Assembly: GCA_050260175.1 (NCBI GenBank)
Contig: JBLNBS010000070.1
Span: 3,379-67,378, forward strand
Direction of reading: 5' to 3'
Length of the DNA stretch: 64,000 nucleotides
DNA from: Patescibacteria group bacterium
Lineage (GTDB): Bacteria > Bacillota > UBA4882 > JAAYXC01
Below the pieces are notes generated by a model. The model saw nothing but the letters and a program-made list of their open reading frames with translations. It was not told the DNA's origin and searched no databases. Both the position numbers and the translations under genes were made by a program. The stretch's first letter is position 1, and every line of letters starts with the position of its first letter. Below are positions 9,842 to 58,962 of this stretch, one piece after another.

Positions 9842-9996
9842 AAAAATCGCGCTGGTTCTGCTCATCCTGCTGATTGTGTGGCTTTTCAGGTCCCCCCGTG
9901 GGCGCCTGGTCACAGGAAGGCTAATCTACTGGGTGGCTTGGAACATCGGTTGGGCGGTTGAGCTTGTAAAATTGATTATTTTTGGGGGCGCTAAGG

Positions 9997-12552: not shown

Positions 12553-12554
12553 CG

Positions 12555-13325: not shown

Positions 13326-13379
13326 ACGGACGGCAGGAGGGTGAATGGAACCCCAAAAACAGGAAAGGGAGTGTCACGG

Positions 13380-41322: not shown

Positions 41323-41559
41323 AGGCGTCGTGAACAACCCATTTTCGACCGGTAAACAAGTAAAACATGGAACGTTATCACATGATTTACATGATTAACA
41401 GGATTAACGAGATTCGGGATCTACGGTCATTGACAAAGACGATTAATAGACAAAGAATTCGTGTAAATCCTGCAAATCATGTTAATCCTGTCAAATATTG
41501 TTCTAATTCGATCTGGTTGTGACGTTACTGTAGAAAGCAAAGTACGGGGAGATGGGCGG

Positions 41560-42540: not shown

Positions 42541-42567
42541 AATCACATCATTCCAGAGGTGGCACTC

Positions 42568-42822
42568 ATGCGTGAACTCCCCATCATCGCCGTCTTGCTC
42601 GGCGCCGGGGCGATGGGTTGTCTTGCCTGGCCAAGGCTGGCCGGGCTGATGTCAAAGAGGACGGCGACGGCCGTCCGGCTGGCCCTCGCCGTGGCGGCGG
42701 TCCTGGCTGCCCTGGATTTTGCCAGGCCCTGGGTCTTCCCATTGGCGTTGGGATTGTTCGTGGGGAGCTATCTCGCGCACGAGGCCGCCAGGCCTGGTTC
42801 AGGTCCGGCGCCGGGAACCTGA
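42568..42822 (+). CDS. Small membrane protein (hypothetical)
   Basis: Two hydrophobic helices. Weak call. Confidence 0.2.
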   Translation: MRELPIIAVLLGAGAMGCLAWPRLAGLMSKRTATAVRLALAVAAVLAALDFARPWVFPLALGLFVGSYLAHEAARPGSGPAPGT

Positions 42823-42862
42823 GACGAACTCCGGCTATCTTCCTCACGGGTGGGATGACCGC

Positions 42863-44683
42863 TCAGCCCGCGCCGGCGTAGCCGAAAGCTCCCTCCTCGT
42901 CCGGGAACTGGCTGCGGTAGAGCCGCGCGTAGAGCCCGTCCGCGGCCAGGAGAGACTCGTGGTCCCCTTCCTCCGAGACACCGCCGCCGTCGATGACCAG
43001 GATCCGATCGGCCCGCCTGATGGTGGAGAGGCGATGGGCGACGATAAAGGCCGTCCTGCCCGTCAGGAGCAGGTCCAACGCCTCCTGGAGCCGCCTCTCG
43101 GTCTGCGAGTCAACGTTGGCCGTGGCCTCGTCGAGGACGAGCAGGCGCGGATCCGCCACCAGGGCGCGGGCAAAGGCGATCAGCTGGCGCTGGCCCACGG
43201 AAAGGCGCGAACCGCGCTCGTTGACAAAGGTGTCGTAGCCTTTGGGCAGGCCGGCGATGAAATCGTGGATCCCCACCGCCCGGGCGGCGGCCTCGATCTC
43301 CGCGCGCGACGCGTCGGGCCGCCCGTAGCGGATATTCTCGTGAATGGTGGCGGAAAAGATGAAGGTTTCCTGGAGGACCACGGCCAGGTTGCGCCGGAGG
43401 TCGGCGAAGGAGATCCGCCGCAGGTCGATGCCGTCGAGCAGGATCCGGCCGGCGGTCGGGTCGTAGAACCGGCAGAGCAGGTTGATGATGGTCGTCTTGC
43501 CGGCGCCGGTGGGTCCGACCAGGGCGATGATCTCGCCGGGGGCCGCCTCGAGGTCAAAGTCACGCAGCACGGGCCGGTCCGGCTCGTAGCCAAAGCTGAC
43601 CCGCTCGAAGCGCACCGCGCCAGCGGCCCTGCGCAGGCGTACGGGTTCGGCTGCCTCGGCCACCTCCGGCCGTTCGTCCAGAAAGTCGAAGATGCGCTCG
43701 CAGGAGGCCATGGCGGCGTTGATGAGGTTGTAGAGATTCCCCAGGTTCTGTATGGGCTGGAAGAAGCGGTTGATGTAGCTGGTATAGGCCACCAGGACCC
43801 CGATGGTCAGCGAGCCTGAAAGGACGAGCCAGCCGCCGAGGCCGAGGACGAGCACGTTGCCCAGGACGGCCAGCATGCCGATGGCCGGCCAAAAGAACGC
43901 CACCACGGGCACCACGGACTGCAGGGCCTCGGCGAGCGAGCCGTTCGTGCGGCGGAAGAGCGCCGCGTTTTCAGTCTCGCGGCCAAAGGCCTGGGTGACG
44001 CGGATCCCGCTGATTGTCTCGTTGAGATTGGCGTTGACGTTCGAGATCCGCCTGCGGATCTCGCGGTAGCCCCGGATCATCTTTTGCCGGACAAAAACCG
44101 CCAGCCAGGCCGTGAGCGGCAGGGTCAGAAAGAGGATCAATGTCAGCCGCCGGTCGAGGTAGATCATGACGGCAAGGATGCCGATGAGGGTAAAGATGTC
44201 GGCCACGACGGTGACCAGGCCGGAGCCGAGCAACTCCTGCAGGGAGTTGACGTCGTTGGTCACCCTCGTCAGGATGCGGCCGACCTTGCGCCGGTCGTAG
44301 AAACGCAGGGAGAGCCTCTGGAGGTGGTCGAACAGCTCCTGCCTGAGGTCGAAGACCGCGTCCTGGCCCGTCCGGATCATGAGGTACGACTGCGCGTACC
44401 CCGCGAGCCACTGCACGGTGATGGCGATGAGGTACAGGAGAGCCACGGGCACGAGGCCTCCGGCATTCCCCCGGCCGATGCAGCCGTCGATCCCCACCTT
44501 GAGCAGGTACGGGCCCACGAGCGCGCTGCCGAGCACCACGAAGGAGAGTGCGATGGTCAGGAGCACGCGGCGGCGGTAAGGGCGCAGGTAGCCGAGGAGG
44601 CGCAAGAAGAGGCTCCGGCTGAAGGAGCGCGTTTCCTGCTCGTCGTCCTCGTAGGCCACGAGCCCGCGCGGCGGGGCGGTCAT
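42863..44683 (-). CDS. ABC transporter permease/ATP-binding protein (type I exporter half-transporter)
   Basis: Six-helix transmembrane domain followed by NBD motifs GPTGAGKTT, LSVGQRQ and LVLDEATA. Confidence 0.85.
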   Translation of the reverse strand: MTAPPRGLVAYEDDEQETRSFSRSLFLRLLGYLRPYRRRVLLTIALSFVVLGSALVGPYLLKVGIDGCIGRGNAGGLVPVALLYLIAITVQWLAGYAQSYLMIRTGQDAVFDLRQELFDHLQRLSLRFYDRRKVGRILTRVTNDVNSLQELLGSGLVTVVADIFTLIGILAVMIYLDRRLTLILFLTLPLTAWLAVFVRQKMIRGYREIRRRISNVNANLNETISGIRVTQAFGRETENAALFRRTNGSLAEALQSVVPVVAFFWPAIGMLAVLGNVLVLGLGGWLVLSGSLTIGVLVAYTSYINRFFQPIQNLGNLYNLINAAMASCERIFDFLDERPEVAEAAEPVRLRRAAGAVRFERVSFGYEPDRPVLRDFDLEAAPGEIIALVGPTGAGKTTIINLLCRFYDPTAGRILLDGIDLRRISFADLRRNLAVVLQETFIFSATIHENIRYGRPDASRAEIEAAARAVGIHDFIAGLPKGYDTFVNERGSRLSVGQRQLIAFARALVADPRLLVLDEATANVDSQTERRLQEALDLLLTGRTAFIVAHRLSTIRRADRILVIDGGGVSEEGDHESLLAADGLYARLYRSQFPDEEGAFGYAGAG

Positions 44684-45387
44684 CGGCTTGTCCTCCTGCT
44701 TCTGAAGGATTTGGACGGCGGATTTATGTTTTTTATATCGTATAAACGGCCTTAGGTCAACAGTTAGGGTCTCCGGGAGGCGCTACCCGCCCTCCCGGAC
44801 CCTCCCGGGCCAAGGGGTTGTGCCGGCAACCCCTTGGAACCCCCCGGCCGGAACCAAGGTTCCTGGACCTCCTTATCCTTGGGATGGTGGGACGTCACCA
44901 TCCTTGGCTCCTCGACGTTAATAAGGTTCCGCGCCCTCCGGGCGCTCCAGACCTATGATGGTCCACGCTGCCGACGGCGGGACCGCATCCAGCGGTCTAC
45001 GCCGCGTGGCTCGGCATCCTGCCTGCGCCGGGAGCACCCCAGGATGGGGTGCCGTTTACAGTAGCAGGAGGCTGGCAACTGCGCCGGGTGCGCCGGACTC
45101 AGCTTCTTCGACACTGCTTGCGGCCTCAGAGACGAGCAGATCAAGGAGCAAGGAAGTCTGGTCGCTAATTGTACATCCCTGTACTTAGCGACTTTAACCC
45201 ATCCTGGGTCTGAGAGCGCAAGCGTACTCAATGTACGCTGAGCACCGGAACGACGCAGCGACGAAGAGATGCGAAGTCTATCAGGCCGCACCGGCGCACC
45301 CGGCGCCGTTCTAAAGTTTACCAAAGCCTAAACACAAGGCCGTTTATACGACACCTTCTTCCAAGGCCGTTGCACGGTTTCAAAGCT

Positions 45388-47118
45388 CTAAGCCCGCTTT
45401 AACTGCAGATCGTACAGCTCCCGGTAGAAACGGTTCCGCTCGTACAGGCAGGCGTGGTTACCGCTGTCCAGCAACCGTCCGCCCTGCAGGACGAGGATCT
45501 GGTCCGCCAGCCTGATGGTGGAGAGGCGCTGGGCGATGATAAAGGTCGTGCGCCCTCTGACCGCGGCTTGCAAGGCCCGCTGGATGGCCTGTTCCGTCTC
45601 GGTGTCCACGCTGGCCGTGGCGTCGTCCAGGATGAGGACGCGGGGATCGCAGATCAGCGCCCGGGCCAGCGCCACCCGCTGTTTTTGCCCGCCCGAAAGC
45701 CCCAGGCCGCGTTCGCCCACGAGCGTCTCGTAGCCCTTGGGCAGGCCGGCGATGAAGTCGTGTATCTGGGCCGCCCTGGCCGCGCGCTCGATCTCGTCCT
45801 GGGTCGCGTCGGGCTTGCCAAAGGCGATGTTCGCGGCAATGGTGGTGGAAAAGAGGAACGTCTCCTGCAGCACGGTGCCGATCGACTTGCGCCAGGCGTG
45901 CAGGTCGAGGCGGCTAAGATCCGCGCCGTCCACCAGGATGCGGCCGCCGGTGGGGGCGTAAAAACGGGGGATGAGGTTGACCAGGGTCGTCTTGCCCGAG
46001 CCGGTCAGGCCGAGGAGGGCGATCTTTTCCCCGGCGCGCGCGGTGAAACTGACGTCGCTCAGGATGGGTTCCTCGCCGTAGGAAAAGGAGACGCGCTCGA
46101 ACCTGATCTCGCACGCGGCGGCCGGAGGGGTTAACGGGGAGGGGGCCAGGGCGATCTCCGGCGCGGCGTGCAGGATCTCGGCCAGGCGGAGCGCGGCCCC
46201 TTCCGCCTGTTTCCAGGTGTTGATGGTGGGGCCCAGGGCCCAGATCGGCCAGGCCAAGAGCCCGAGATAGAAATGGAAGGAGACGAAGATCCCCAGCGTG
46301 ACCTCGCGTGCGATCACCTGGCGCCCGCCGAAATAGAGCACGCACAGGGTGCCCAGGCCGTTGAAGAAGCCGAACAGAGGGCCGTAGAAGGCATGCAGGC
46401 GGGAGACCTCCATGTTGCGGAGGCGCATCCGGTCGTTCTCCCGGCGGAACTTGGCCATCTCCGTGCCTTCCGCGCCGAAGGCCCTGACGACCCGTACGCC
46501 CGCGATATTCTCCTGGGCGGCCACGTTGAGCCTGGCCGCCTGCTCCTGGCGGGACACGACGCCGCGCCGCACGGCGCGCCCGAACCGCCCGACGCAGAGG
46601 GCCACCGGGGGCAGGATGACGGAGTAGACGAGGGCCAGCTGCCAGTCGAGGCTATAGAGGACGGCGGTGGCGGCAAGGAGCACCACGAGGATGTTCACGC
46701 CGTGGCTGACGCCAAAGGCGAAGAAATTGCGGACGAACTCGATGTCCTGGGTGAGGCGGGACATCAGATCACCCGTGGGCGTGCGGTCAAAGTAGGAGAA
46801 GGAGAGTTCCTGCAGATGCTCGTAGAGCGCTTGTCTGAGGTCGGTGACGATGCGGTTGGCGGAACTCTCGTAGAGCGTGATCTGGACAAAGCCCAAGACG
46901 AGCCTAGCCGCGCCGAGTGCCAGGATCAGAGCGAGGCGGAAGAGGAGGAGCGGCAGCCTGACGCCGGCCGCCAGGCCGTCGACGGCGCGGCCGATCAGGA
47001 GGGGGATACCGAAGCTCGCGGACTGGTTGCAGAGGAGGAGCAGGGTTGCCAGGAAAAAACGGCCCCGATACGGCCGAAAAAAGTCGCGCAACATCCGAAA
47101 GACCGGCACGCACCGCAC
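45388..47118 (-). CDS. ABC transporter permease/ATP-binding protein (probable heterodimer partner)
   Basis: Transmembrane domain followed by NBD motifs GLTGSGKTT, LSGGQKQR and LILDDATS. Confidence 0.85.
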   Translation of the reverse strand: MRCVPVFRMLRDFFRPYRGRFFLATLLLLCNQSASFGIPLLIGRAVDGLAAGVRLPLLLFRLALILALGAARLVLGFVQITLYESSANRIVTDLRQALYEHLQELSFSYFDRTPTGDLMSRLTQDIEFVRNFFAFGVSHGVNILVVLLAATAVLYSLDWQLALVYSVILPPVALCVGRFGRAVRRGVVSRQEQAARLNVAAQENIAGVRVVRAFGAEGTEMAKFRRENDRMRLRNMEVSRLHAFYGPLFGFFNGLGTLCVLYFGGRQVIAREVTLGIFVSFHFYLGLLAWPIWALGPTINTWKQAEGAALRLAEILHAAPEIALAPSPLTPPAAACEIRFERVSFSYGEEPILSDVSFTARAGEKIALLGLTGSGKTTLVNLIPRFYAPTGGRILVDGADLSRLDLHAWRKSIGTVLQETFLFSTTIAANIAFGKPDATQDEIERAARAAQIHDFIAGLPKGYETLVGERGLGLSGGQKQRVALARALICDPRVLILDDATASVDTETEQAIQRALQAAVRGRTTFIIAQRLSTIRLADQILVLQGGRLLDSGNHACLYERNRFYRELYDLQLKRA

Positions 47119-47305
47119 CTCCGCCTGGATTCAAGGGGTATCGTAGCACGGGTGGTAAAGCTTGTCAATCGACCGGGATGATTGTTTTACGGACAACCGG
47201 GCCGAATTGCGCGGATCTGTCCCATGGCGTACGGCGGGCGCGCTATGGCGCACAAAGAAGCCGGGCAGGAACTCCGCTCCGCAGGGGCGAATTCGGTGAA
47301 GCGGG

Positions 47306-49117
47306 GTGAGGATCATGCGATGGCTCATGGCGGTGCGTGAAAAAAAAGGCGACTGGGGCACGGGATTCAGGGCCGCATCATGCACGATCAAGGCCCCCGC
47401 CTGCTGGCAGGAGAGGATCGCGGCGCTCGTGGCCGCGGCGGGACACCGCCCGGCTTCCGACGGACGTTACGCGCTGGTGGCGGCGGAGGCGCCGGAGCTG
47501 CCGCCGGAGTCATACCGCATCAGGTTCGTGCCCGCGGAGGGGCGCGGCACGCTCGCCATCGCGGCATCCGACGCGCGCGGCGCGGCCTATGCCGCCCGGA
47601 CGGCCGCGGAGCTCATGGGGGCCGAACCGGGCGGAGAGGTGACTATCGAGGACGGGCCGGCCTTTGCCGTGCGCGGCGTGGTGGAGGGTTTCTACGGCCG
47701 GCCCTGGAGCCACGCCGAGCGCCTGGATGCCCTGGCATTCATGGGCGGGCACCGGCTGAACACTTACATGTACGCGCCAAAGGACGACGCCTACCATCGC
47801 AGGCTGTGGCGGATCCCTTACGGGCGCGCGGCGATGGGCCGGTTCCGCGCCTTGGCCGGGGCCGCCGCCCGCCACGGCGTTGATTTCGGCGTGGCGATCA
47901 GCCCCGGGCTGTCCCTGCGTTACAGCGACGAGGGCGATTACCGCCTCCTCCTCGCCAAGTACAGGCAGTTCACGGCCCTCGGCCTCCGCGTCCTCGGCCT
48001 CTATCTCGACGACATACCCGGCCGGCTGGTCCACGAGGCCGATCGGGACCGGTTCGGCACCCTGGCGCGCGCCCAGGCGGCGCTGGCCAACCGGCTCCGC
48101 AGCGATCTGGCCCGCGAGATCCCCCGGCTCTGCCTCGTTTTTTGCCCCACGGAGTATTGCGGGCAGGGCGGCTCCGCCTACCTGCGCGAGCTGGGGGAGC
48201 TCTTGGACCCGTCAATCGAGGTGCACTGGACGGGAAACCGCGTCTGCGCGCGCAGGATCACCCGGGCCGAGGCGCAAAGGGTAGGGGAGGTCCTGCGGCG
48301 GCCCCCGCTCTATTGGGATAACTATCCCGTGAACGATTATTTCATGGTCACCGAGCTGCACCTGGGCCCCTACCGCGGCCGCGCGGCCGACCTGGCCGGC
48401 GCCGCCCGGGGCGTCCTGGCCAATCCCATGAACCAGGCCCTGGCGAGCCGGCCCGCGCTGGCCAGCATGGCCAGGTATCTCTGGCGGCCCGAATGCTACG
48501 ACCCGCGGGAAGCCGCCCTCGAGGCCTACGCGGATCTCGTTCCCGAGCCGGCGCGGGCGGCATTCGCGCATTTTGCGGCGGCCAACGCGCCGGGGCCGTT
48601 TCGCGCGCCGGCGGTGCCGCGGCAGAGCCTTGCATTGGCCCGGCGGCAGGAGGCCCGCGAAGATCGGGACGGGGCGCGCCGCACCTGGGCGGCGGAGGCG
48701 CACCGGCTGGCAAGCTCGGCCGCGGCCCTGCGCGCCCATCTGCCCGCGCCGCTCAAGCGGGAGATAGGCCCCTGGCTCGACGAATACAGGGGTTGGGCCG
48801 TGCTCGCCGCCGTGGGCCTCTTCGCGGAGGCCGGGTTTCACAAGGTGCAGGGGGCGAAGGGGAAAGGGGAAAAGCTCGCGGCCTATCTCAGGCTCGAGCG
48901 GGATTTGGCGCGGCTGCGCCGGGGGCTGTCGGCAAGCGCGCGCTGGCGGACCGGCGTTTGCGGCCGCGAGATCCACGCCCATCTCGTCGATCAGGCCCAA
49001 AGGCTGGAAGGGGTCCTCCGGGTGATGTCGCCGTTCCCCGCTGTTCTCCGGCCGCTTCTGCGGTTTTGCGGCCGGTTCGTCACAGGGCGGCGTGCTTTTC
49101 CCCCACCCGGGCCTTGA
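47306..49117 (+). CDS. GH84-family beta-N-acetylglucosaminidase (O-GlcNAcase-like)
   Basis: GVVEGFYGRPWS, LNTYMYAPKDD, YLDDIP and YWDNYPVND match GH84 signatures. Confidence 0.7.
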   Translation: MRIMRWLMAVREKKGDWGTGFRAASCTIKAPACWQERIAALVAAAGHRPASDGRYALVAAEAPELPPESYRIRFVPAEGRGTLAIAASDARGAAYAARTAAELMGAEPGGEVTIEDGPAFAVRGVVEGFYGRPWSHAERLDALAFMGGHRLNTYMYAPKDDAYHRRLWRIPYGRAAMGRFRALAGAAARHGVDFGVAISPGLSLRYSDEGDYRLLLAKYRQFTALGLRVLGLYLDDIPGRLVHEADRDRFGTLARAQAALANRLRSDLAREIPRLCLVFCPTEYCGQGGSAYLRELGELLDPSIEVHWTGNRVCARRITRAEAQRVGEVLRRPPLYWDNYPVNDYFMVTELHLGPYRGRAADLAGAARGVLANPMNQALASRPALASMARYLWRPECYDPREAALEAYADLVPEPARAAFAHFAAANAPGPFRAPAVPRQSLALARRQEAREDRDGARRTWAAEAHRLASSAAALRAHLPAPLKREIGPWLDEYRGWAVLAAVGLFAEAGFHKVQGAKGKGEKLAAYLRLERDLARLRRGLSASARWRTGVCGREIHAHLVDQAQRLEGVLRVMSPFPAVLRPLLRFCGRFVTGRRAFPPPGP

Positions 49118-50399
49118 TCTCCTCGAGCCTGCGGCCGTGCAGGGGATACCAGATCATCCCCAGGACGGTGAGAACGAGCGCGGCAAGGGGGATTGCGCTC
49201 ATGAGAAACCGGATGCCGAAGAGCGCCGTGGCCGTCTGTGCCGCGGCGTTTTCGTCGTACCGGAAAACCGTGAGGACGGAGGCGATGATCACGCCCTGCA
49301 GGGCGCCGGCCAGGCGGATGGCGAGGCCGTTGATGCCAAAGAACATGCCCTCGCGCCGCTCGCCCGTACGCAGCTCGTCCTCGTCGATCACATCGGAGAT
49401 CAGGAGGTCGGGGATGAGCATCAGGCCGGCCAGCCCCACGCCGAGGAGGCCGCAGAGGACGAAGGCCGCGGGCACGCTGCCCACGAAGATGAAGCCGAGG
49501 CAGGCCAGGCCGAAGGCGGCGGCCGTGCAGATCTGCGCCGCGCGGGGGCCGCGCTTGACCGTGACGGCCCGCCAGAAAAGGAGCAGGGGCAGGGTCACGA
49601 GGAAGGCCGTGCCCAGGAGGAGGGTCTGGATCATGCCCTCCGCGTGCAGGATGTACTTGGCAAAAAAGGCGAAGGTGGCCTGGACCGTGCCCATGGCCAG
49701 GGTGATGCCGAAATTGGCCAGGGCGAAAAGAAGGAAAGCCTTGCTCGTGAAGGTGAACTTGAGCGCGCGGATGAGGCCGACCTCGGCGCCCTGCCGGTAC
49801 TCGGGCCGCTCCCTGCTGCCGAGGAGCGAGAGGAACATGGTGGCCAGGGTGACCAGGGCCAAGGCCCCGCCCATCCAGGCCCAGCCCAGACCCTTGTAGA
49901 GTATGGGCGGAATGGCCATGCCGAGCACGAGGCCCACGATGGCCAAGATCTGCCGCCACGCCGAGACCTCCGCCCGTTCCTCGAGGCTGGGGAACATCTC
50001 CGGGAACAGGGCGGTCCAGTTGAGCACGACCAGGGTAAAGAAGGAGTCGAACAGGAACATGGAGCCGAGCAGGTACCAAAAGAGCCAGCCCTGCTGGGCC
50101 GCGGTAGAGGGGGGCACCCAGAGCAGGAAGAAGAAGAGGGCGAAGGGCACGGTGCCGAGGGCGATGAAGGGTATGCGCCGGCCCCAGCGGGTGCGCGTCC
50201 GGTCGGACCACTGGCCGAAGAGCGGATCGTTGATCGCGTTCCAGAGGCCGAAAAAGAACCAGGCCAAGCCGAAGAGGGTCTTGGGGAATTTCATGACATC
50301 GATGTAAAAGAAGGTGATGTAGGTGAGGAAAGCCTGGTTGGAGACGGCCGCCGCGAGGGAGCCGCAACTGTAGAGGATCTTGCGCCCGCGCATGCCCAT
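49080..50399 (-). CDS. GPH-family (MelB-like) glycoside/cation symporter
   Basis: Twelve transmembrane helices and the GPH motif GQWSDRTRTRWGRRIPF. Confidence 0.7.
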   Translation of the reverse strand: MGMRGRKILYSCGSLAAAVSNQAFLTYITFFYIDVMKFPKTLFGLAWFFFGLWNAINDPLFGQWSDRTRTRWGRRIPFIALGTVPFALFFFLLWVPPSTAAQQGWLFWYLLGSMFLFDSFFTLVVLNWTALFPEMFPSLEERAEVSAWRQILAIVGLVLGMAIPPILYKGLGWAWMGGALALVTLATMFLSLLGSRERPEYRQGAEVGLIRALKFTFTSKAFLLFALANFGITLAMGTVQATFAFFAKYILHAEGMIQTLLLGTAFLVTLPLLLFWRAVTVKRGPRAAQICTAAAFGLACLGFIFVGSVPAAFVLCGLLGVGLAGLMLIPDLLISDVIDEDELRTGERREGMFFGINGLAIRLAGALQGVIIASVLTVFRYDENAAAQTATALFGIRFLMSAIPLAALVLTVLGMIWYPLHGRRLEEIKARVGEKHAAL

Positions 50400-50510
50400 G
50401 CCCCCCGGTTCAGAGGATGAGCGGGTATTCAACGCCGTATATGGGAAGTCCTGCCGGTTATAATCCGCCCCCGATCCTTGGATGCTATCGCTTTGACGGG
50501 GGTGTTTTTG

Positions 50511-51476
50511 ATGTCCGGGAAAAATCCATCCGCGCCTGGTTTGGCAATCCTTCTTTGCTTTGCCGCTATCCTTGCCCTTGGCTGCCCGAGGGGGCTCTCG
50601 CCCCTGCGGGGCGCGCCGACCCGCCGGCGGAGCGAGCCCGTCATCAGCGTGTTTTTTCACGAGAACGGCACGACGCGCAAGATGCCCCTCGAGCAGTACC
50701 TGGTGGGCGTCGTGGCGGGCGAGATGAAGCCGGACTGGCCGCGCAAAGCCTATGCCGCGCAGGCCATCGTGGCCCGGACCTTCACCATGGAATTCATCGG
50801 GCGGGGCGGCACGCGCCGGCTGCACGGCACGGACATCTGCACCGACGAAGAGCACGCCCAGGCCTATACCACGAGCAGCATCACGCCTCTGATCCGCCAA
50901 GCCGTGGCCGACACCAGGGGGGTCGTCATGCTCCATGGCGGCCGCTACGTCCACGGCTGGTTCTCCGCGAGCTGCGGCGGGCGGACCGCCTATGCCAGGC
51001 AGGGGCTGGCCTATAAGGGCGCGGAGCCGCCGTACATCAGCTCGGTCTCCTGCCCCGAGGGGCGGGTCATCCCAAAATCCGAGCAGCTCTGGCAGGCCCG
51101 GTTCAGCGGCGCGGAGATGGCTGCGGCGGTAAAGAAAGCCACCGGCAGGGATCTCGGCCAGGTCACCGGGGCCGAGCGCTTGGGCGTGGATCGGACGACG
51201 CACCGCACCACCAGGCTCCGCCTGACGGGCGCGAACGGCTCGGCCGAGTTGGCGGCGGCGGATTTCCGCGTGGCCATAGGGCCGGAAAAGATGCGCTCGA
51301 TCTGGCTTTTGGAGCTCAAAAGCGAGGGCGGCGCCACGGCCATGTCCGGGCGCGGTTTCGGCCACGGCGTGGGCCTCTGCCAGTGGGGGGCGCATGCCCT
51401 GGCCAAGGAGGGCAAGACGCCCAACGAGATCGTGCAGCATTTTTACCCCAGGGTGAAGATCACGAAGATGTGGTGA
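50511..51476 (+). CDS. SpoIID/LytB-domain protein
   Basis: AQAIVARTF, CTDEEHAQAY and SASCGGRT match SpoIID/LytB-domain signatures. Confidence 0.7.
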   Translation: MSGKNPSAPGLAILLCFAAILALGCPRGLSPLRGAPTRRRSEPVISVFFHENGTTRKMPLEQYLVGVVAGEMKPDWPRKAYAAQAIVARTFTMEFIGRGGTRRLHGTDICTDEEHAQAYTTSSITPLIRQAVADTRGVVMLHGGRYVHGWFSASCGGRTAYARQGLAYKGAEPPYISSVSCPEGRVIPKSEQLWQARFSGAEMAAAVKKATGRDLGQVTGAERLGVDRTTHRTTRLRLTGANGSAELAAADFRVAIGPEKMRSIWLLELKSEGGATAMSGRGFGHGVGLCQWGAHALAKEGKTPNEIVQHFYPRVKITKMW

Positions 51477-51580
51477 CCTGACCCGCTATTGGGTGAGGCT
51501 GCGGCCGTCCCCGGGCGCAGCTTCCAGCTTTTACAGTCGCGGCCGCCACGGCGGAGCAGGTCAACGGTGCCCAGACCCTG

Positions 51581-53725
51581 GTGACGACGTACGAATACGA
51601 CGCCCTTGGGCGGCAGACGGGACTGAAAGATGCCAAATACAATGCCGGTCAAACCACGGCCCAGACCGTCATGGCCTATGACTCCCTGGGCAGGCTGCTC
51701 GACAAGACCGACCCCTACGCCGGTCACACGACCTATCAATACGATCTCGTCGGCAACGTGATCGCCAAGACCGACGCCAAGGGGAGCAAGCTGATCTACG
51801 CCTACGACGCCTTGAACCGCCTGGTCAGCAAATCCGTTTTGCGCCCGGGTGAATCGGTGCCGGTCGTTCTTTCCACGCTGGTTTACGACGAGACGACGCG
51901 TACTTTTGGCATCGGCCGGTTGACCAGCACCTATCTGGGCTCGTCCACCCAGGACGGTGAGTACGATTATGACGCCGAGGGCAACCCAACCTACACCACG
52001 AAGTATATCGACGGTACGGCCTATATCACCCGGGTGGAGACCGATCCCCTGGGCAGGATGACCCGCCTGACCTATCCGGATGGCTCCATCGTCGACTACA
52101 CATACGAGGCCGGGGCATTGAAAACCGTGGGTTCTTACGCCACTTACAGCAACTGGAACGCCGCCGGCCTGCCGCGGGATGTGGACTACGGCAACGACAC
52201 AGAAACGACCTATACTTATGATCCTCAAACACTGCGACTGGCCAACCTCGAAACCCGCGCCCCGGGAGGCACGGTGATCCAGTCCTACGCCTACAGCTTC
52301 GACCCCGTGGGCAACATCACAGCCATCACCGACAACGCGCCCATCACCTCGCTTCATACAATCAGTGTCAGCCAGAGCTTTACCTACGACGCCCTGAACC
52401 GCCTGACCGGCTCCAGCGTCTGGGGTTCCTATGCCTATGACGAGGTCGGCAACATCACCGCCAAGGAAGGCATAACATTCACCTACACCGACCCCGCGCA
52501 TCCCTACTGCCCGACCGGGGGCAGCAGCGGCTACCAGGCGAGCTACGATCCAAACGGCAACCTGGCGGAGAAGACGGACAAGAATGGCGTCCACTGGCGG
52601 TACGTATACGACGATGAAAACATGCTGATCCAGGTCTATAAGACACCGGCGGGAGGGTCCGAGGGTCTGGTCGAGGAATATACCTATGGAACGGATGGAC
52701 TAAGAAGCCGGAAGGTCAATCATGAGGGTGGCCAAGCGGTAAGCACATCCTACGTTTATCTCGGTTATAACGTCCTTTACGAAAAGACCGGGGAAACGGC
52801 CGCGCGGTACATCCTGGCCAATGACCGGGAGATCGCCAAAGTAGCCGGCAGTGAGACATACTACACGCACCGGGACCATCTGGGGTCGTCGTCTGTGGTA
52901 ACCAATGGGTCAGGTAGCGTTGTGGCCTGGAATGCCAATCACCCGTATGGCGATGAGTGGATCGTCGGACCGGGGGCGGATGTGGACCGGCATAGGTTCA
53001 CGGGTAAGGAGACAGATGCAGGAACTGGGTTGGTATATTTCGGGGCGAGGTATTATGATACGGAGATCGGGAGGTTTACGACAGTTGATCCAATACAAGA
53101 TGGATGGAATTGGTATGAGTATTGTCGATCAAATCCATTGACATATATAGATCAAAACGGCTTTTATCCCGCCATAGGTTCCAGCGCTCAAGAAGAACAA
53201 AAACTAAGAGGTAATGGATATACAGAAACTAAAACAAATCCGGATGGATCGATCACAACGACAACAACAATTTATCGTGGTTATTATGGTACAGATGTGA
53301 CCATTATCCAAGATAAAAGATCAAAATATTTTCCATTTGGCACAAGAATAGTTACTGAAGTTCATGCAACATTTAATATTATTGATACCAATCAAGAAGC
53401 ATATAATCTTAATCGATTAGATAATATATGCAATTGGTTTAAAGACGGATTGATGATCGTTGGCGGTTATGTTATAGCTGAACCGTTTGCGTTATTAGGG
53501 ATATTGAATTTCGCTGCCGATGCTTTTACTTCATTCGGTAGCGGCCAGCCTACTTATGAAAAAGGGGATGTTGTTTACGAGGTCAATGCTACAAGAGATT
53601 CTTATACCTTTCCATTCCTTCATACCTCACAGACTATGCAGTATATCATCATCGTGAAAAGCGATAAGGTATTGATTATAGAAATTACTAATAGCTTGAA
53701 TTATGGAGGCGGGTTTTATCAATGA
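51581..53725 (+). CDS. RHS/YD-repeat protein fragment (5'-truncated) with the RHS core and a low-GC C-terminal toxin domain
   Basis: YD repeats (YEYDALGRQ, YQYDLVGNV, YAYDALNRL and others) and the RHS core (YYTHRDHLGSS...RFTGKETD...ARYYDTEIGRFTTVDPIQ...NPLTYIDQNGF). The last ~190 aa drop sharply in GC. An in-frame stop at 51494 and the end of the upstream SpoIID gene at 51476 leave no room for an N-terminal domain. Confidence 0.75.
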   Translation: MTTYEYDALGRQTGLKDAKYNAGQTTAQTVMAYDSLGRLLDKTDPYAGHTTYQYDLVGNVIAKTDAKGSKLIYAYDALNRLVSKSVLRPGESVPVVLSTLVYDETTRTFGIGRLTSTYLGSSTQDGEYDYDAEGNPTYTTKYIDGTAYITRVETDPLGRMTRLTYPDGSIVDYTYEAGALKTVGSYATYSNWNAAGLPRDVDYGNDTETTYTYDPQTLRLANLETRAPGGTVIQSYAYSFDPVGNITAITDNAPITSLHTISVSQSFTYDALNRLTGSSVWGSYAYDEVGNITAKEGITFTYTDPAHPYCPTGGSSGYQASYDPNGNLAEKTDKNGVHWRYVYDDENMLIQVYKTPAGGSEGLVEEYTYGTDGLRSRKVNHEGGQAVSTSYVYLGYNVLYEKTGETAARYILANDREIAKVAGSETYYTHRDHLGSSSVVTNGSGSVVAWNANHPYGDEWIVGPGADVDRHRFTGKETDAGTGLVYFGARYYDTEIGRFTTVDPIQDGWNWYEYCRSNPLTYIDQNGFYPAIGSSAQEEQKLRGNGYTETKTNPDGSITTTTTIYRGYYGTDVTIIQDKRSKYFPFGTRIVTEVHATFNIIDTNQEAYNLNRLDNICNWFKDGLMIVGGYVIAEPFALLGILNFAADAFTSFGSGQPTYEKGDVVYEVNATRDSYTFPFLHTSQTMQYIIIVKSDKVLIIEITNSLNYGGGFYQ

Positions 53726-54015
53726 AAGTTGGTTTCGCGGCTTTTTTATGGTTATTATTTACATTTTTTGGATATTTTCTAAATACTAAGTTTATACTTC
53801 ATTATGAATCAAATTTATTACATATGATTTTTAAGATCAATAATAGATATTTATATAGATTTATTCAATCATTATGGCGCATGACGGTTGCAACAGGATT
53901 TTATTTGTTATTAATTTATAGTACTAAGTTATTTTATCGATATATTTACTTTGCTTTATTAAGTTTCACGCTTGGTTTATTATTAAGTAAAAAAACATTT
54001 ATGAAATGTCGGTGA
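53722..54015 (+). CDS. Putative RHS-toxin immunity protein (low-GC, membrane)
   Basis: Start overlaps the toxin stop (ATGA). Very AT-rich; three or four transmembrane helices. Confidence 0.4.
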   Translation: MKVGFAAFLWLLFTFFGYFLNTKFILHYESNLLHMIFKINNRYLYRFIQSLWRMTVATGFYLLLIYSTKLFYRYIYFALLSFTLGLLLSKKTFMKCR

Positions 54016-54431
54016 TTACTATATCCTGAAGTCGGAGGACAAGCAAAGCCCCAAAGGACCGCAAAGGAAAACCGTCTCCTGCTGTAGCCGGGGAGGCGGT
54101 TTGTTATCAGGAATCTATCTCCACTCAGGATGGGCTTATAGGCGGCGATGTACATGGAGGTACCCAAGCCGCCACCGAATCCCCGCAGGGATTTGAGAAC
54201 GCTTTTGAGGCGGTGTGAAAAACCCGTCTCTCTACCCGGGGGGCTGCTTTGGACCATCCTTGGTCGTCGCTGCCTTTTACCCATCGTGGGTATGAGGTGA
54301 ATCCCCAGGCTACAACTGAACGATTTTCCAAAGCCCTGTCCGGCCCGCTTTGAGACATCCGTGTCCGTCGCGGGCTTCAATCCCTTCTGGGCTGACCTGA
54401 CAGGGCTCGGATAGTCTTCGAAGTTACACCG

Positions 54432-54470
54432 AACCCGTACAGGACGTACGGGTTTTAGAAGTGTTTTTTT
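54432..54470 (+). terminator. Rho-independent terminator-like hairpin
   Basis: AACCCGTAC-AGGAC-GTACGGGTT followed by TTAGAAGTGTTTTTTT. Confidence 0.4.
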
Positions 54471-54559
54471 GAATAGCCCAGGGTTTCAACCCTGGGTTGA
54501 CGGTGATCGGTCTTTTCACACCGCTTTTAGCGTAGCCCAGGAATTCATTCCTGGGCACC

Positions 54560-56716
54560 TCAATTCCTGTTCTCCACCGTCCTCGTCAAGATCGGAAACC
54601 CCGTCGGCCGCAGGATCTCCACCACCAGGCTGTGCCCGGACGGCGCCTCATAGTCCCAGGCGTAGCGCCAGACCGCGCCCGGGGCCAAGGTGGGCAGGAC
54701 CCGCGTGCCCGAGCAGAATTCCCCGCCATTGGCGTCCAGAACCGTCCAGCGCAGCCGGTAGCCGCGGAGCGTGTACGCGGGCATCTCCCGCTCGACCGGC
54801 CCGCGGGCGTGCAGGACCAGCTCGGCGCCGTAAAAGTTGCCGGTCCGCGTGGCCATGGTGACCAGGCTGTCGAGGACGGCCGGCGCGTATTCCGCCGCGA
54901 GGAGATCCCTTGAGGGCAGGGGCCTGCGCTCGGCATCCACGAGGCCCATGCGAAAGTTGGCGGGCGTGCGGTAGTCGGCGTAGCACCAAAAGACGGCGGC
55001 CGCGATGTAGTCGCGCCGGCGAAAGGCCGCCATCTGCTCGCGGATGACCGCCTGCCGCTGCCTGTCGTGCTGGAGGGGCGGGGCCGTGCCGGGCGCCACG
55101 TAAAAAGAGGTTGTGTCCTCGGGGCGGGGGCCGAAGGGCCAGTTGGGCTCGTAGCCGAACTCGGAGATGACGATCATCCGGTCCGGCCAAATCCTGTGGA
55201 GGTTGTCCAGGGCGGGTTCCAGGTCCTGCTTGCGGCCGGCCCAGGTGCCAAAGTACTGGTTCATCATGATGAAATCCACGAGATCGCTGGCCTCGTCCCC
55301 GGCCCGCGCCAACCAGCCCAGGCGGTTGCTGGCAAAGGAGACGGGGCGTGTCGGGTCGAGCGACTTGACGTAGCCGTACAGGGTCTTGACGAATTCCTTG
55401 CCCGCCGCCGAAGTGGAGTCGATCTCGTTGCAGAGGCTCCAGGCCCAGATGCAGGGGTGGTTGTAGTCGGTCTCGATCATCTCGCGGAGCTGCTGCTTGA
55501 CGAGGTCCACGACCTTGGCGTCGCTCATCTGGCTGGCGCTGAGCTGCCAGGCCGGCACCTCAGGGATGAGCAGGATGCCGTTGCGGTCGCAATAATCCAG
55601 GATGAAGCGGTGCTGCGGGTAATGGACGGGCCTGGTCAGGGTCGTGTTCAAGAGCTTGAGCTGGTCAAAATCCCAGCGCATCATGGCCACCGGCTCGGCC
55701 GAGCCGTACCAGGCGCTGTCCGCGTGCCTGGTCACGCCGGAGAGCCGCACCCGTTCGCCGTTGAGGTAAAGCCCGGTGCCCCTGATCTCCACCCGCCGCA
55801 CGCCAAAGGTGGTCCGGTAAGTGCCGGGGGAAAACCCCTTGGCTCGCAAGCCGAGTTCCAGGCGGTAGAGGACCGGCCGGTCGAAATGCCAGGGCTCGAG
55901 ATTCGGCACCACGGCCTTGAAGCGGACCTCTCCCCGGCCCGCGGGCGCGGCGGCGGCCACCGCGTCGCCCGTCCAGAGGGGCGCCCCGCCGCCGTCCGGG
56001 TAGACCGCGGGGAGGAGTTCCACGGGCACCTCCCTGCCCGTGGCGTTCTCGAGGAATGCCCTGATCTCGAGCTCGCCCCGGCCGGACTCCGCCGGCACGG
56101 CGGAGACCAGGGCGTGATGGACGTAGACCGGGCCCGTCGAGACGAGGCTGACGTCCCGCACCAGCCCGCCGTAGCCCCACCAGTCGTAGGACCAGGAGGG
56201 GCCGAGCTTTGCCGGCACCCGGTCGTAGTCGCGGCGGTTGTCGAGCCGGACGGCGATGAGGTTGAGCTCGCCCGGCCTCAACAGCTTCGTCACGTCGAAC
56301 TCGAATCTGGTGTAGCCGCCCTCGTGGGCGCCCAGGAAGACGCCGTTGAACCAGACCCGGGCCAGGTAAAAGGCGGCGTCGAAGACGAGACGCGTCTGCC
56401 TGCCCGCGGCGGCGCGCGGCCCGGCGAACGATTTGCGGTACCAAGCCACGCCCTCGTAGTCGCGCCAGGCCCTCATGGTGTTCCAGGTATGGGGGACGCT
56501 GACCGTCTCGGCTCCGGGCGGCTCAAAGCCAGGACGGTACCACTTGTTCTCTTCCCCCCTGCCGGCCGGATCGGCGGCAAAGGACCATTCGCCGCCGAGA
56601 TCGTAGACCTCGCACCCCGCAGGCTGGCCCGGGACGGGTGGCGGAGAAGCGGCCCGCACCGGCAGGGCCAGCACGGCGACTGAGAGCAGGAGCAGCAGCT
56701 TGATCGGCTTGCCCAA
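54560..56716 (-). CDS. GH2-family secreted glycoside hydrolase (beta-galactosidase/mannosidase/glucuronidase-like)
   Basis: Signal peptide and GH2 sugar-binding/TIM-barrel signatures (NGVFLGAHEGGYT, WSLCNEI). Confidence 0.8.
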   Translation of the reverse strand: MGKPIKLLLLLSVAVLALPVRAASPPPVPGQPAGCEVYDLGGEWSFAADPAGRGEENKWYRPGFEPPGAETVSVPHTWNTMRAWRDYEGVAWYRKSFAGPRAAAGRQTRLVFDAAFYLARVWFNGVFLGAHEGGYTRFEFDVTKLLRPGELNLIAVRLDNRRDYDRVPAKLGPSWSYDWWGYGGLVRDVSLVSTGPVYVHHALVSAVPAESGRGELEIRAFLENATGREVPVELLPAVYPDGGGAPLWTGDAVAAAAPAGRGEVRFKAVVPNLEPWHFDRPVLYRLELGLRAKGFSPGTYRTTFGVRRVEIRGTGLYLNGERVRLSGVTRHADSAWYGSAEPVAMMRWDFDQLKLLNTTLTRPVHYPQHRFILDYCDRNGILLIPEVPAWQLSASQMSDAKVVDLVKQQLREMIETDYNHPCIWAWSLCNEIDSTSAAGKEFVKTLYGYVKSLDPTRPVSFASNRLGWLARAGDEASDLVDFIMMNQYFGTWAGRKQDLEPALDNLHRIWPDRMIVISEFGYEPNWPFGPRPEDTTSFYVAPGTAPPLQHDRQRQAVIREQMAAFRRRDYIAAAVFWCYADYRTPANFRMGLVDAERRPLPSRDLLAAEYAPAVLDSLVTMATRTGNFYGAELVLHARGPVEREMPAYTLRGYRLRWTVLDANGGEFCSGTRVLPTLAPGAVWRYAWDYEAPSGHSLVVEILRPTGFPILTRTVENRN

Positions 56717-56722
56717 CGCGGA

Positions 56723-57466
56723 TCAGCACCTTTCGCAAGGGCCAGTCTCCCCGGATTTGGCACAGGTCTGATCCTCCGGAGGGGGGAGTACCTCCCAGCC
56801 CAGCTCCTGGGCCTTGCGCAGGAGCCCCCGGTCCGGGTTGACCGCCACCGCATGTCCGGCCAGGGAGAGGATGGGCAGGTCGTGAAGGGAATCCGCATAG
56901 GCATACGCCCGGTCCAGGTCGTATGTCTCGCCGGCCCGCCCGAGCCCGGCCAGGTATGCCCTGAGGGCCGCGGCCTTGGCCGGCCCAATGCAGTGGGCGC
57001 CGATGCGGCCCGTGCATCGCCCGTCCCGCATCACGAGCGGGGTGCCGAGCCAGGCCCCGGCGCCGATCTCACGCGCGACCAAGCCGAGGAAAACCTCGAA
57101 AGCCCCTGAGAGCAGCACGATCCGGTCGCCGGCGGCGGCGTGGGCCCGGAGCCGCGCCAGGACGGCCGGGTTGAAACGGCTCACGGCCTCGGCCAGGCAG
57201 CGGCCGAAATATGCCTGGAGCTCGTCCTCGTCCATGCCGCGCAGGATCCGGGCCAAGCCCCGCGTGGCGTAGGTCATGAGCCGCAAGCGGCAGAAACCCA
57301 GCTTGTACAGGGCGTAACCGGCCGCGTGCGTGAGGTAGTACCATCTTATCCTGCCGCGCCTGGCCGGGTCCCGGCTGAGCACGCGCAGGAAGAGGCGGAA
57401 CGTTTCCCCGCCGTAAATGGTGCCGTCGAAATCGAAGATGGCCAGCCCCAACGATTTTTTTTGCAT
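56723..57466 (-). CDS. HAD-IB family hydrolase (SerB-like)
   Basis: DFDGT motif in LGLAIFDFDGTIYGG. Confidence 0.6.
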   Translation of the reverse strand: MQKKSLGLAIFDFDGTIYGGETFRLFLRVLSRDPARRGRIRWYYLTHAAGYALYKLGFCRLRLMTYATRGLARILRGMDEDELQAYFGRCLAEAVSRFNPAVLARLRAHAAAGDRIVLLSGAFEVFLGLVAREIGAGAWLGTPLVMRDGRCTGRIGAHCIGPAKAAALRAYLAGLGRAGETYDLDRAYAYADSLHDLPILSLAGHAVAVNPDRGLLRKAQELGWEVLPPPEDQTCAKSGETGPCERC

Positions 57467-57547
57467 CATCTTAACACTATTAATGGTTTTATCCGCATAA
57501 TCTGTGAAATCGGTGGTTCAATCGGTCTGGGTTTTCGAGATTCGGGT

Positions 57548-58720
57548 TTACGGAAACACGATCTTTAGATATTCCCGCTGCAGCTCGATCTCTTCCCCAA
57601 AAGTTGCGCCGGGTTTAGTGCGCACGAAGACGAGGTGGAGCTGCCGCCCCTTGAGCGACGCGATGCCCCCGGTGGCGCCGCCGGCTCCCGCGATTACGTA
57701 ATTGGCCACGGTGCGGCGGCAGACGATCGCTTCGCCCTTGCGCACGGCGGTGTCGAAACGATGGTCGGCCTCGCTTGCGTAGTACCAGTATTGCGTGATG
57801 TTACCGCCCAGGTAGAGGAGTTTGTCCGGATTGAAGGCGCTCTCGGCAGCGACGTTGCCGGGGTTCGTCACCTCGGCCAGGGACTTGCGCGCGCGGGCGT
57901 TCATAAAGCAACCCGGGTCAAGGGAGGCATGCACATAAACCCCGCCGGGCTCCGGCAGGTTGATGACGAGGACGAAGGGTTTCTTCCTCAGCTTGACCTG
58001 ATGGTCCCGGATGCGCGCCGCCTTGCCGTCCTGCTCCACGCCGACGGTGAAACCCGCGGTTACAGCACCGGCGGGCGGCGGGGCCGCGGTCCGGGCGGCC
58101 GGGATTTGGGAGGCGGCCGGCGGCTGAGTCTCGGTGGTGCCGGACTGGGGCGCCCGTGCCGGCTTGTCCCCGGCGCCGGCCGGTTTCCCCGCGCTCAGCT
58201 TAAAACTGCGGCAGATCTGGTCGAAGGCCTTGCGGAACCGGCCGAAGCTCTCGGGCGTGGCCGAGCAGGTGATGGTGTAACAGGTCTTGCCCGCGAGGAT
58301 GGCGTAGGCCAGGTTCTTGAGCTTGACCTGGCCCATGCGGTGGCTGTAGACGAGCCAACCGGCGGGGAGGTCCGAGAGATCGATCCGCCCCTCCTCATGG
58401 CCCTGGAAATCCGTGAGATATTTCTTCATCTCAGCGACGGAGGCCGCCATGTACGCGTCGATGCTGACAGCCTCCGGCAGCTCGTCGAGGATGACGTTCA
58501 CGTTCTCGCGAAAGGTGTCGTTCCCGCTCTCCGCGGGGCTGATGGCGACGAGCGGCACGCCGAGGGGCCCCTTGGAAGCCTCCCAATCGGCCGGCAGCTC
58601 GAGGGAGAAGCCCAGCTCATCATCGTGATATACGCGCGTCCCGGCGGCCAGCGGCATGGCCGCGGCCAGGCAAACCAGGCATGCCGCCGCGATGAGCGGC
58701 CGGATCCACCTGCGGCGCAT
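57548..58720 (-). CDS. Secreted two-domain protein with an N-terminal DcrB/PsbP-like domain
   Basis: Signal peptide MRRRWIRPLIAAACLVCLAAAMPLAAG. RBS GGGGGAGGA. The domain assignment is tentative. Confidence 0.4.
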   Translation of the reverse strand: MRRRWIRPLIAAACLVCLAAAMPLAAGTRVYHDDELGFSLELPADWEASKGPLGVPLVAISPAESGNDTFRENVNVILDELPEAVSIDAYMAASVAEMKKYLTDFQGHEEGRIDLSDLPAGWLVYSHRMGQVKLKNLAYAILAGKTCYTITCSATPESFGRFRKAFDQICRSFKLSAGKPAGAGDKPARAPQSGTTETQPPAASQIPAARTAAPPPAGAVTAGFTVGVEQDGKAARIRDHQVKLRKKPFVLVINLPEPGGVYVHASLDPGCFMNARARKSLAEVTNPGNVAAESAFNPDKLLYLGGNITQYWYYASEADHRFDTAVRKGEAIVCRRTVANYVIAGAGGATGGIASLKGRQLHLVFVRTKPGATFGEEIELQREYLKIVFP

Positions 58721-58962
58721 TCCTCCCCCACCCCTTCCAGCCACGCGGCATTCGATGCCAGTATTCACCACGCCCGGGCCGACTCCTGCTTTTGGGGCGG
58801 GGGGTCTGGGCGCCCGCATGCATATCAGAGATGCGAAAACGAGTTCCATCTTTCACGCGAAGGCGCGATGCGCGAAAAAGAAGCATAGCCCATCGTGATC
58901 GGAGCCTGGCAGAATCAAGCCCCCACAACCTGGGGCATCAGGGGCGCGTGCGCGAGGCAAGG

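Follow-up and report, generated by a model that had tools for sequence, protein, structure and literature searches.

A probable horizontally acquired, 5'-truncated orphan rhs-CT/immunity module beside a SpoIID/LytB-domain gene in a Bacillota-like genome

A 64,000-nt stretch of DNA (positions 3,379 to 67,378 of contig JBLNBS010000070.1, assembly GCA_050260175.1; hereafter the window) carries, between a SpoIID/LytB-domain gene and a gene for a GH2 glycosidase, a fragment of an RHS/YD-repeat gene that ends in an AT-rich C-terminal tip and is followed by a small open reading frame (ORF) for a hydrophobic protein. We propose, with a probability of about 0.62, that this locus is a horizontally acquired, 5'-truncated orphan rhs-CT/immunity module (CT, C-terminal) that is not deliverable on its own, and that the immunity gene is the part of the module most likely to be used. 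Our analysis shows that no complete, deliverable RHS effector can be encoded here: the frame has neither a complete shell nor an N-terminal region for trafficking or plugging (PAAR/VgrG-binding, signal peptide or SpvB/TcdB-N), and homology to RHS proteins starts at residue 19 of the open frame. Orphan rhs-CT/rhsI modules were defined, and the idea of an immunity repertoire was put forward, by Poole et al. (2011; PMC3150448); they are an established category, and the leftover type of module is already well known. What is unusual here is the isolation of the module beside housekeeping genes, the SpvB/TcdB-N-RHS parent in a Bacillota-like lineage, the extreme compositional contrast and a tip/immunity pair with no known relative.

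The truncation is evident at the left end of the locus. The SpoIID/LytB-domain gene stops with TGA at 51474-51476, the RHS frame opens 18 nt beyond, and after an in-frame TGA at 51494-51496 it stays open from 51497 to 53725 on the plus strand (743 codons including the stop). The initial annotation, made from the sequence without database searches, had argued from the end of the upstream gene at 51476 and the stop at 51494 that there is no room for an N-terminal domain, and this view holds. The earliest in-frame start is a GTG at 51581, which would give a product of 714 aa and lies in the middle of a YD repeat (LV-TTYEYDALGR), with no Shine-Dalgarno motif upstream of it; the 54 nt from the in-frame stop to 51551 are without RHS homology, as judged by tblastn with four close relatives. 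Read-through from the SpoIID/LytB-domain gene into the RHS frame was considered and rejected, as the two frames differ and stops intervene. This neighbouring gene is itself complete to the last position of the family model, and the alignment with its orthologue in a related genome, GCA_050260415.1 (L090), reaches the stop codon. The module had been described as butted against spoIID; the 18-nt gap bears out the adjacency, but because the neighbour scores 166.8 bits against the spoIID equivalog, under the cut-off of 234.75 bits, we class it by its sequence as a SpoIID/LytB-domain paralogue and not as canonical spoIID.

The RHS identity of the fragment is clear. Pfam RHS_repeat (PF05593) matches in five stretches (E 3.7e-34), and the NCBIfam model TIGR03696 (Rhs_assc_core) matches at aa 483-555 over model positions 3-75 of 76 (E 6e-20), in agreement with the earlier description of a complete RHS core ending in a DQNGF-type motif; the motif, DQNG-F, occupies residues 552-556 (nt 53150-53164) at the core's end. 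The four closest relatives found in a search of 5.8 billion proteins (P0002-P0005) are 54-61% identical. When compared with the window by tblastn, they gave a single collinear match, which starts at 51551-51554, corresponding to residues 113-293 of the relatives, and ends at 53161, the last residue of the core. Upstream of the RHS parts of such relatives, in contigs L002 and L089, lie SpvB, FG-GAP and TcdB_toxin_midN ORFs on the same strand, abutting or overlapping, and the parent-type gene in both contigs appears frameshift-fragmented. These upstream domains point to a parent that was TcB/TcC-fusion-like rather than a type VI secretion system (T6SS) Rhs, with a predicted length of about 1,600 aa or more and a predicted domain order of SpvB, FG-GAP propeller, TcdB_midN, RHS cocoon, Rhs core and toxin tip. 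In the window, neither the relatives nor the upstream SpvB, FG-GAP and TcdB_midN ORFs gave any further tblastn match or a second RHS, and the frameshifted N-terminal coding region that the annotation had named as grounds for abandoning its view was likewise not found upstream by these searches.

How far the parent would have extended is indicated by 59 distant relatives (25-41% identical) whose contigs permit the test. Measured from the position that aligns with the first codon of the present RHS frame, their ORFs extend upstream by a median of 1,125 codons; the extension is shorter than 300 codons in five and shorter than 100 codons in only one, L156 from a Lachnospiraceae metagenome-assembled genome (MAG), which is itself an array of truncated RHS genes. 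Together with a predicted fold that covers a TcC-like half only, this sustains the earlier suggestion that the module is truncated and displaced. Alignment-based scans of metagenome and genome contigs returned distant RHS relatives alone, at no more than 41% identity, and no copy of this RHS core; an exact-protein look-up of the 714-aa ORF and a single-protein scan of genome contigs also gave no match. The closest relative on a long contig, P0003 (L002:10001-12157), stops four codons past its DPSGR motif, without a toxin tip. The SpvB, FG-GAP and TcdB_midN regions of L002 are split among overlapping ORFs, which could reflect a pseudogene or long-read indel errors.

The 742-residue frame was modelled with AlphaFold2 from a 71-sequence alignment, and the model was compared with the PDB by Foldseek (TMt, TM-score normalised to the target). 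The mean predicted local distance difference test score (pLDDT) is 78.6; over residues 21-560 the means of 10-residue blocks are at least 82 and mostly above 90, and scores are below 50 across nearly all of the tip, which has a pLDDT of 32 when modelled alone from a single sequence. Foldseek matches to Rhs, TcC and teneurin shells reach E values down to 6e-32. The top matches are TcC subunits (YenC2 4igl_B, TMt 0.66; RHS2 5kis_B, 0.65; TccC2 6l7i_G, 0.62), and TMt is 0.31-0.41 against complete T6SS Rhs shells (RhsA 7q97, 8qja and Tse15 8uxt) and just 0.21-0.23 against TcdB2-TccC3 fusions. By sequence, residues 165-306 map to TccC2 214-359, residues 461-555 to YenC2 590-689 and residues 61-556 to RhsP 697-1152. 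Because fold matches and sequence mapping agree, we read the fragment in the model as about one TcC-like half of the cocoon, and even from this half some 50-70 residues are probably missing.

These likenesses raise an alternative, in which the 714-aa product is a functional stand-alone TcC-like subunit that makes up half a cocoon and assembles in trans with a TcB-like partner from another locus, like the orphan tccC of Photorhabdus. The best structural matches are indeed TcC chains, the sequence maps to TccC2 and YenC2 as given above, the frame is intact, and the locus shares with TcC subunits and TcB-TcC fusions (4igl_B, 5kis_B, 6l7i_G and TcdB2-TccC3 4o9x) the two core-protease aspartates and the cleavage position, its closest sequence relatives bearing SpvB, FG-GAP and TcdB_midN upstream. 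Immunity-like genes typically adjoin the genes of antibacterial Rhs and not those of Tc toxins, however, and the one present here fits an antibacterial rather than an insecticidal role. RHS homology extends about 10 codons upstream of the sole start and then ends abruptly, that start lacks a Shine-Dalgarno motif, in the closest relatives a single fused gene continues across this point, and no TcA or TcB was found by tblastn in the window. Orphan TcC genes away from tcA/tcB are documented (PMC7861908), but 97% of TcC proteins fall within 851-1,050 aa in length and 201-400 aa in their hypervariable region (Song et al. 2021; PMC7861908), and both the 714-742 aa of the present product and its 187-aa tip lie outside these ranges, the fragment being shorter than 97% of TcC proteins and having about 50-70 N-terminal residues fewer by sequence mapping. 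We regard a stand-alone subunit as very unlikely.

In an alignment of the core with TccC3, D531 corresponds to D651, D552 to D674 and F556/Y557 to the cleavage point L678/M679, and a deposited cleavage-deficient TccC3 has alanine at the D651 position. Among 70 relatives, aspartate occupies the D531 column in 69 and the D552 column in 66; the proline of the DPxG motif, replaced by glutamine here, is found in 55, and leucine before the cut, where this sequence has phenylalanine, in 39. Because the aspartates are conserved and the TccC3 alignment places them as expected for the protease, the core autoprotease looks intact.

The tip that follows the core is unrelated to the tips of the relatives, RHS homology ending at 53161. 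It has no match in Pfam, NCBIfam, PADLOC, PHROGs, PDB sequences, plasmids or phages, no relative among 17,620 ORF pieces from about 170 RHS loci, and none in a word-indexed search of 5.8 billion proteins or when 1.84 billion cluster representatives were searched exhaustively with HMMER. Its only true match is the same sequence in Logan assemblies SRR24035586-88, from the same organism, and one of these three sequencing runs carries a 1-nt insertion, possibly an error. Two weak HMMER matches, P0122 and P0123, are to repeated SdrD_B/CarboxypepD_reg and cadherin-like motifs of surface proteins, with a beta-sandwich character; they cover 37-45 residues (PDGS.TTTT..GYY) and were set aside as uninformative, since we take them for a short beta-hairpin or compositional resemblance inflated by seven repeats; a Pfam CFSR match (E 0.04) was discounted as being of the same kind. 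The best match among PDB sequences (E 0.015) is an unrelated aldolase fusion, and Tse5-CT (8cp6) shows no similarity to the tip there. The toxin domain had been called unrecognisable, and no family model in Pfam, NCBIfam, PADLOC or PHROGs changes that; a match to a non-toxic structural fold, which would have spoken against a toxin, was also not obtained among these families or PDB sequences.

The small ORF is similarly isolated, with no family match in Pfam, NCBIfam, PADLOC or PHROGs and no relative in the roughly 170 RHS loci; matches to DesK_N and DUF1494 (E 0.07-0.19) were dismissed as hydrophobic noise. Its exact protein is also present in the three Logan assemblies SRR24035586-88. The protein has 12 lysines and arginines against one acidic residue, hydrophobic segments that span aa 1-26 and aa 70-88, and, as read by eye, a weaker one at about aa 54-68. 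These segments, the 23% GC content and the ATGA overlap with the stop of the tip agree with the earlier description of a tiny AT-rich membrane-protein gene overlapping the toxin stop. The tip frame contains no stop in 187 codons, whereas the other five frames contain 7-19; the 97 codons of the small ORF are likewise free of stops, of which the two alternative frames on that strand have 8-9. Because these frames stay open in AT-rich DNA, we take the tip and the small ORF to be real or very recently real coding sequences, and the features of the locus as a whole are far beyond chance. This putative membrane protein of 97 aa probably protects against the tip.

What the tip might act on can be suggested only by analogy. 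By analogy with pore-forming colicins, a membrane-embedded immunity protein would point to a membrane-acting toxin. The present tip has one hydrophobic stretch (tip aa 96-122; Kyte-Doolittle 19-residue maximum 1.99), two histidines and one cysteine, and no catalytic motif was seen in it. In Pseudomonas aeruginosa, the pore-forming Tse5-CT has as its cognate immunity protein Tsi5, an integral membrane protein (PMC9637101); judged by hydropathy, the locus resembles this pair (PMC9637101, PMC10684867) in an Rhs tip without an enzymatic motif but with hydrophobic sequence, and in a small, putatively membrane-embedded immunity protein. In contrast, no sequence similarity is detectable, and the present tip, which looks mostly beta, contains just one hydrophobic stretch, so that the comparison is an analogy only. 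Because of the putative membrane immunity protein, the hydrophobic stretch, the lack of a catalytic motif and the Tse5-CT/Tsi5 analogy, action of the tip on the cytoplasmic membrane is possible, albeit doubtful.

The composition of the locus changes in steps. GC content (guanine plus cytosine) is 63.7% in the window, about 58-59% in the RHS part, 35.7% in the tip and 23% in the small ORF. At third codon positions (GC3), sixteen other genes of the window lie at 0.82-0.91, with a prophage capsid gene (0.71) and one probably over-extended ORF as the exceptions; GC3 is 0.75 in the RHS repeats, falls to 0.39 in the last 54 codons of the core (53000-53161) and is lower still in the tip (0.27) and the small ORF (0.19). 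The composition break is therefore near 53000, about 50 codons ahead of the end of the core and not at the motif itself, that is, within the conserved core-coding sequence. The initial annotation had described an AT-rich C-terminal domain of about 190 aa; its size (187 aa) and low GC content stand, while the shift in composition begins earlier than proposed, inside the core. According to the C-terminal displacement model, which Jackson is said to have put forward in 2009, the recombination joint reportedly lies inside core-coding sequence. The drop in GC3 near 53000 likely marks the recombination joint of the low-GC module.

A foreign origin is also suggested by the genomic setting. In the related genome L090 (71% identity in SpoIID), just 166 nt separate the orthologues of the SpoIID and HAD genes, whereas the window holds 5.25 kb between them, comprising the RHS fragment, the tip, the small ORF, a spacer of about 545 nt and the GH2 gene. 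The stepwise GC3 and this empty site in L090 support a horizontal origin of the module, as had been suggested from composition. Joint arrival of the GH2 gene with the module was rejected, because its GC3 of 0.91 is host-like, and we treat the gene as separate. The 166-nt spacer of L090 (L090:10955-11120) is made up of a short tandem repeat, its type being GCCTC(A/T)TGCCT(T/C). No direct or inverted repeats, tRNA, integrase or transposase were found at the borders of the island in the window.

Taken together, these observations suggest the following course of events. A low-GC tip and immunity gene would have been joined to an RHS body by recombination in the core-coding sequence near nt 53000, and the fragment would have come to occupy a variable slot between the SpoIID/LytB and HAD genes. 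Only the last ~535 aa of the cocoon would have survived, followed by the core autoprotease motif, a foreign tip of 187 aa and a translationally coupled gene of 97 aa. Because the trafficking region, the other half of the cage and a translation start signal are lacking, the toxin would be neither built nor delivered from this locus, and because no start signal is present, the RHS fragment would not be translated efficiently. The small gene, in contrast, could be translated from its own GGAGG and may protect the cell from neighbouring cells armed with this tip. Should the genome hold a full-length rhs, homologous recombination with the fragment could also transfer the tip to it.

Several observations weigh against this orphan-module reading. 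Classical orphans sit just downstream of a main gene, but no full-length rhs is present in the window. In the libraries searched, the tip and the small ORF have no relatives, and hence there is no known attacker to counter. An old relic without expression would not be expected to keep its 2.2-kb frame fully intact, as is the case here. Only one assembly supports the left junction (51477-51550), which is not spanned by the Logan contigs retrieved, and the membrane-target suggestion for the tip comes from hydropathy only, with a tip pLDDT of 32.

Another view is that the locus is an inert relic of a full-length gene lost by deletion or rearrangement, with the tip and the small ORF unexpressed and their frames intact because the event was recent. 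The absence of a start signal ahead of the RHS frame is consistent with it, as are the promoter-like sites, none of which stands out from what AT-rich DNA would yield (11 sites, all at the minimum score), the rearrangement of the region relative to L090, and the lack of relatives of the tip and small ORF, which leaves no known threat to select for immunity. However, both AT-rich frames are fully open where a stop is expected by chance every ~11-15 codons, the small ORF retains its GGAGG and the ATGA overlap, and the sequence is identical in three sequencing runs (apart from a 1-nt insertion in one that may be an error). We consider an inert relic unlikely, although it deserves to be kept in mind.

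Expression of the tip itself is invoked by another possibility, in which the pair is an addiction module resembling a toxin-antitoxin system, with the tip made from an internal start and restrained by the small protein, as for Salmonella orphan Rhs (PMC7043789). The tip and small ORF are tightly coupled in translation, and sigma-70-like hexamers in the AT-rich part number 11 against 3.5 expected. On the other hand, the sole candidate for an internal start near the core/tip boundary is a TTG at residue 512 with a weak AGGA, and the promoter-like sites, all of minimum score, lie in AT-rich DNA where they easily arise. An addiction module is, in our view, very improbable indeed.

Could the locus be an artefact? 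If the join between SpoIID and RHS were produced by the metagenome assembler, the RHS part would belong to a complete gene elsewhere. The sequence is a MAG contig with a doubtful taxonomic label, and independent Logan contigs cover 52665-54202 and the region from 54487 on, but not the left junction; moreover, Logan contigs (the ends of L001 and L005) break at identical positions, 52792 and 54169-54170, in two runs. These breaks suggest branch points in the assembly graph, whether from paralogous RHS, alternative tips or strains. In contrast, the 67.9-kb contig is syntenic with L090 on both sides of the island, the GC content of the RHS repeats (59%) is much nearer to that of the host than to that of the tip, and no repeat is shared at the junction. 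A chimera is the least probable of all the explanations that we weighed.

A bolder version of the orphan-module reading can be formulated, in which the tip and small ORF are the first representatives seen of a membrane-targeting toxin/immunity family whose low-GC donor is unsampled, and the TcC-sized half-cocoon is a working cargo module loaded in trans by a separate TcB-like protein of this Bacillota lineage. We think this distinctly unlikely; if true, it would extend split Tc-type loading to interbacterial toxins.

The favoured reading, an orphan rhs-CT/immunity module, can be compared with known systems. With enterobacterial orphan rhs-CT/rhsI modules (PMC3150448; Salmonella, PMC7043789), the locus shares an rhs fragment with the core through the DPxGL-type motif, the lack of an N-terminus and of translation start signals, a tip unrelated to the tips of relatives and an intact small ORF downstream. 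It differs in standing alone beside housekeeping genes with no main rhs in 64 kb, in its unusually long repeat stretch (~535 aa), in an SpvB/TcdB-N-RHS parent from a Bacillota-like organism instead of a PAAR/VgrG-linked T6SS Rhs, and in a tip for which no relative fused to any full-length Rhs was found (~170 RHS loci searched). Another parallel is the L156 array (CANQPM010000004.1), in which truncated RHS ORFs of 715-864 aa match residues ~32-556 of the present frame and each module has a different tip and a small downstream ORF; unlike the single isolated copy described here, its modules are in tandem, with nearly identical RHS parts and an interspersed transposase, and identity to the present fragment is 28-29%. 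This array (L156:1-12400) contains at least three tandem truncated RHS modules with a transposase between two of them and is a clear example of C-terminal displacement in Firmicutes.

Orphan toxin/immunity modules are raw material for warhead swaps and immunity repertoires in polymorphic toxin systems, and the present case documents one in a little-known, high-GC lineage that is Bacillota-like and has Hydrogenispora and Capillibacterium among its kin, with a parent of the TcB/TcC-fusion type rather than of T6SS Rhs and a tip/immunity pair for which more than 5 billion proteins offer no relative. Should the tip be toxic, it would found a new toxin family whose antidote is already at hand; if not, the locus mainly confirms a well-described pattern. 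The features of the locus are compiled in Table 1.

Table 1. Features of the putative orphan module and its flanks (window coordinates)
Feature	Coordinates	Strand	Basis or remark
SpoIID/LytB-domain gene, intact, left flank	50511-51476	+	TIGR02669 positions 5-270 of 270, 185.5 bits
Left junction and truncation breakpoint	51477-51550 (74 nt)	+	No RHS homology; in-frame stop inside
5'-truncated RHS/YD-repeat shell fragment ending in Rhs-associated core	51551-53161	+	Pfam RHS_repeat; 54-61% identity to P0002-P0005
Rhs-associated core, aa 483-555, with DQNG/F motif, D531 and D552	52943-53161	+	TIGR03696; TccC3 alignment
Composition break within core	53000-53161	+	GC3 0.75 to 0.39
C-terminal tip, 187 aa and stop, unclassified	53162-53725	+	GC 36%, GC3 0.27; one 27-aa hydrophobic stretch
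GGAGG Shine-Dalgarno motif	53706-53710	+	11 nt ahead of small-ORF ATG
Putative immunity gene, 97 aa, hydrophobic, basic	53722-54015	+	GC 23%; ATG overlaps toxin stop (ATGA)
Right spacer, ~545 nt, 54% GC, two 22-nt hairpins	54016-54559		No recognisable gene
GH2 glycosidase, right flank	54560-56716	-	Host-like composition, GC3 0.91
HAD hydrolase, next after GH2	56723-57469		Orthologue adjoins SpoIID in L090

Several further observations concern the organism and the surroundings of the locus. The NCBI label of the assembly, 'Patescibacteria group bacterium', is contradicted by its content, namely 64% GC, SpoIID/LytB, MurT/GatD and nearest relatives in Bacillota; the SpoIID/LytB protein is 100% identical to P0124, a 321-aa protein of an NCBI MAG, and its relatives are Bacillota MAGs (Capillibacterium, 56%; Hydrogenispora, 54%). 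Two near relatives are labelled Bacteroidota, a label that also looks wrong. Relative to L090, the SpoIID-HAD-PsbP/DcrB-like block is inverted (window 41479-58849) and a pair of ABC transporter genes (42863-47118) has entered between those for the GTPase and the NAGidase, which marks the neighbourhood as prone to rearrangement. Elsewhere in the window, prophage-like genes at 9982-14642 include one for a tail-like protein and one for a major capsid protein of the HK97 type (TIGR01554, E 2.6e-26), and it is this capsid gene whose GC3 of 0.71 is lower than that of the host genes.

The right spacer (54016-54559) matches no protein family, gives no above-threshold match to an RNA family and does not resemble the flanks of the relatives. 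Within it, a 22-nt hairpin, AGCCCAGGnnTTCAnnCCTGGG, occurs in two copies 59 nt apart (54475-54496 and 54534-54555), directly 3' of the GH2 gene on the minus strand, where no copies are expected by chance. The hairpins give sub-threshold matches to the Rfam family Acido-Lenti-1 (26.5 and 24.6 bits against a gathering score of 37), and because an independent Logan contig (L006) ends within the first copy, the hairpin may recur across the genome.

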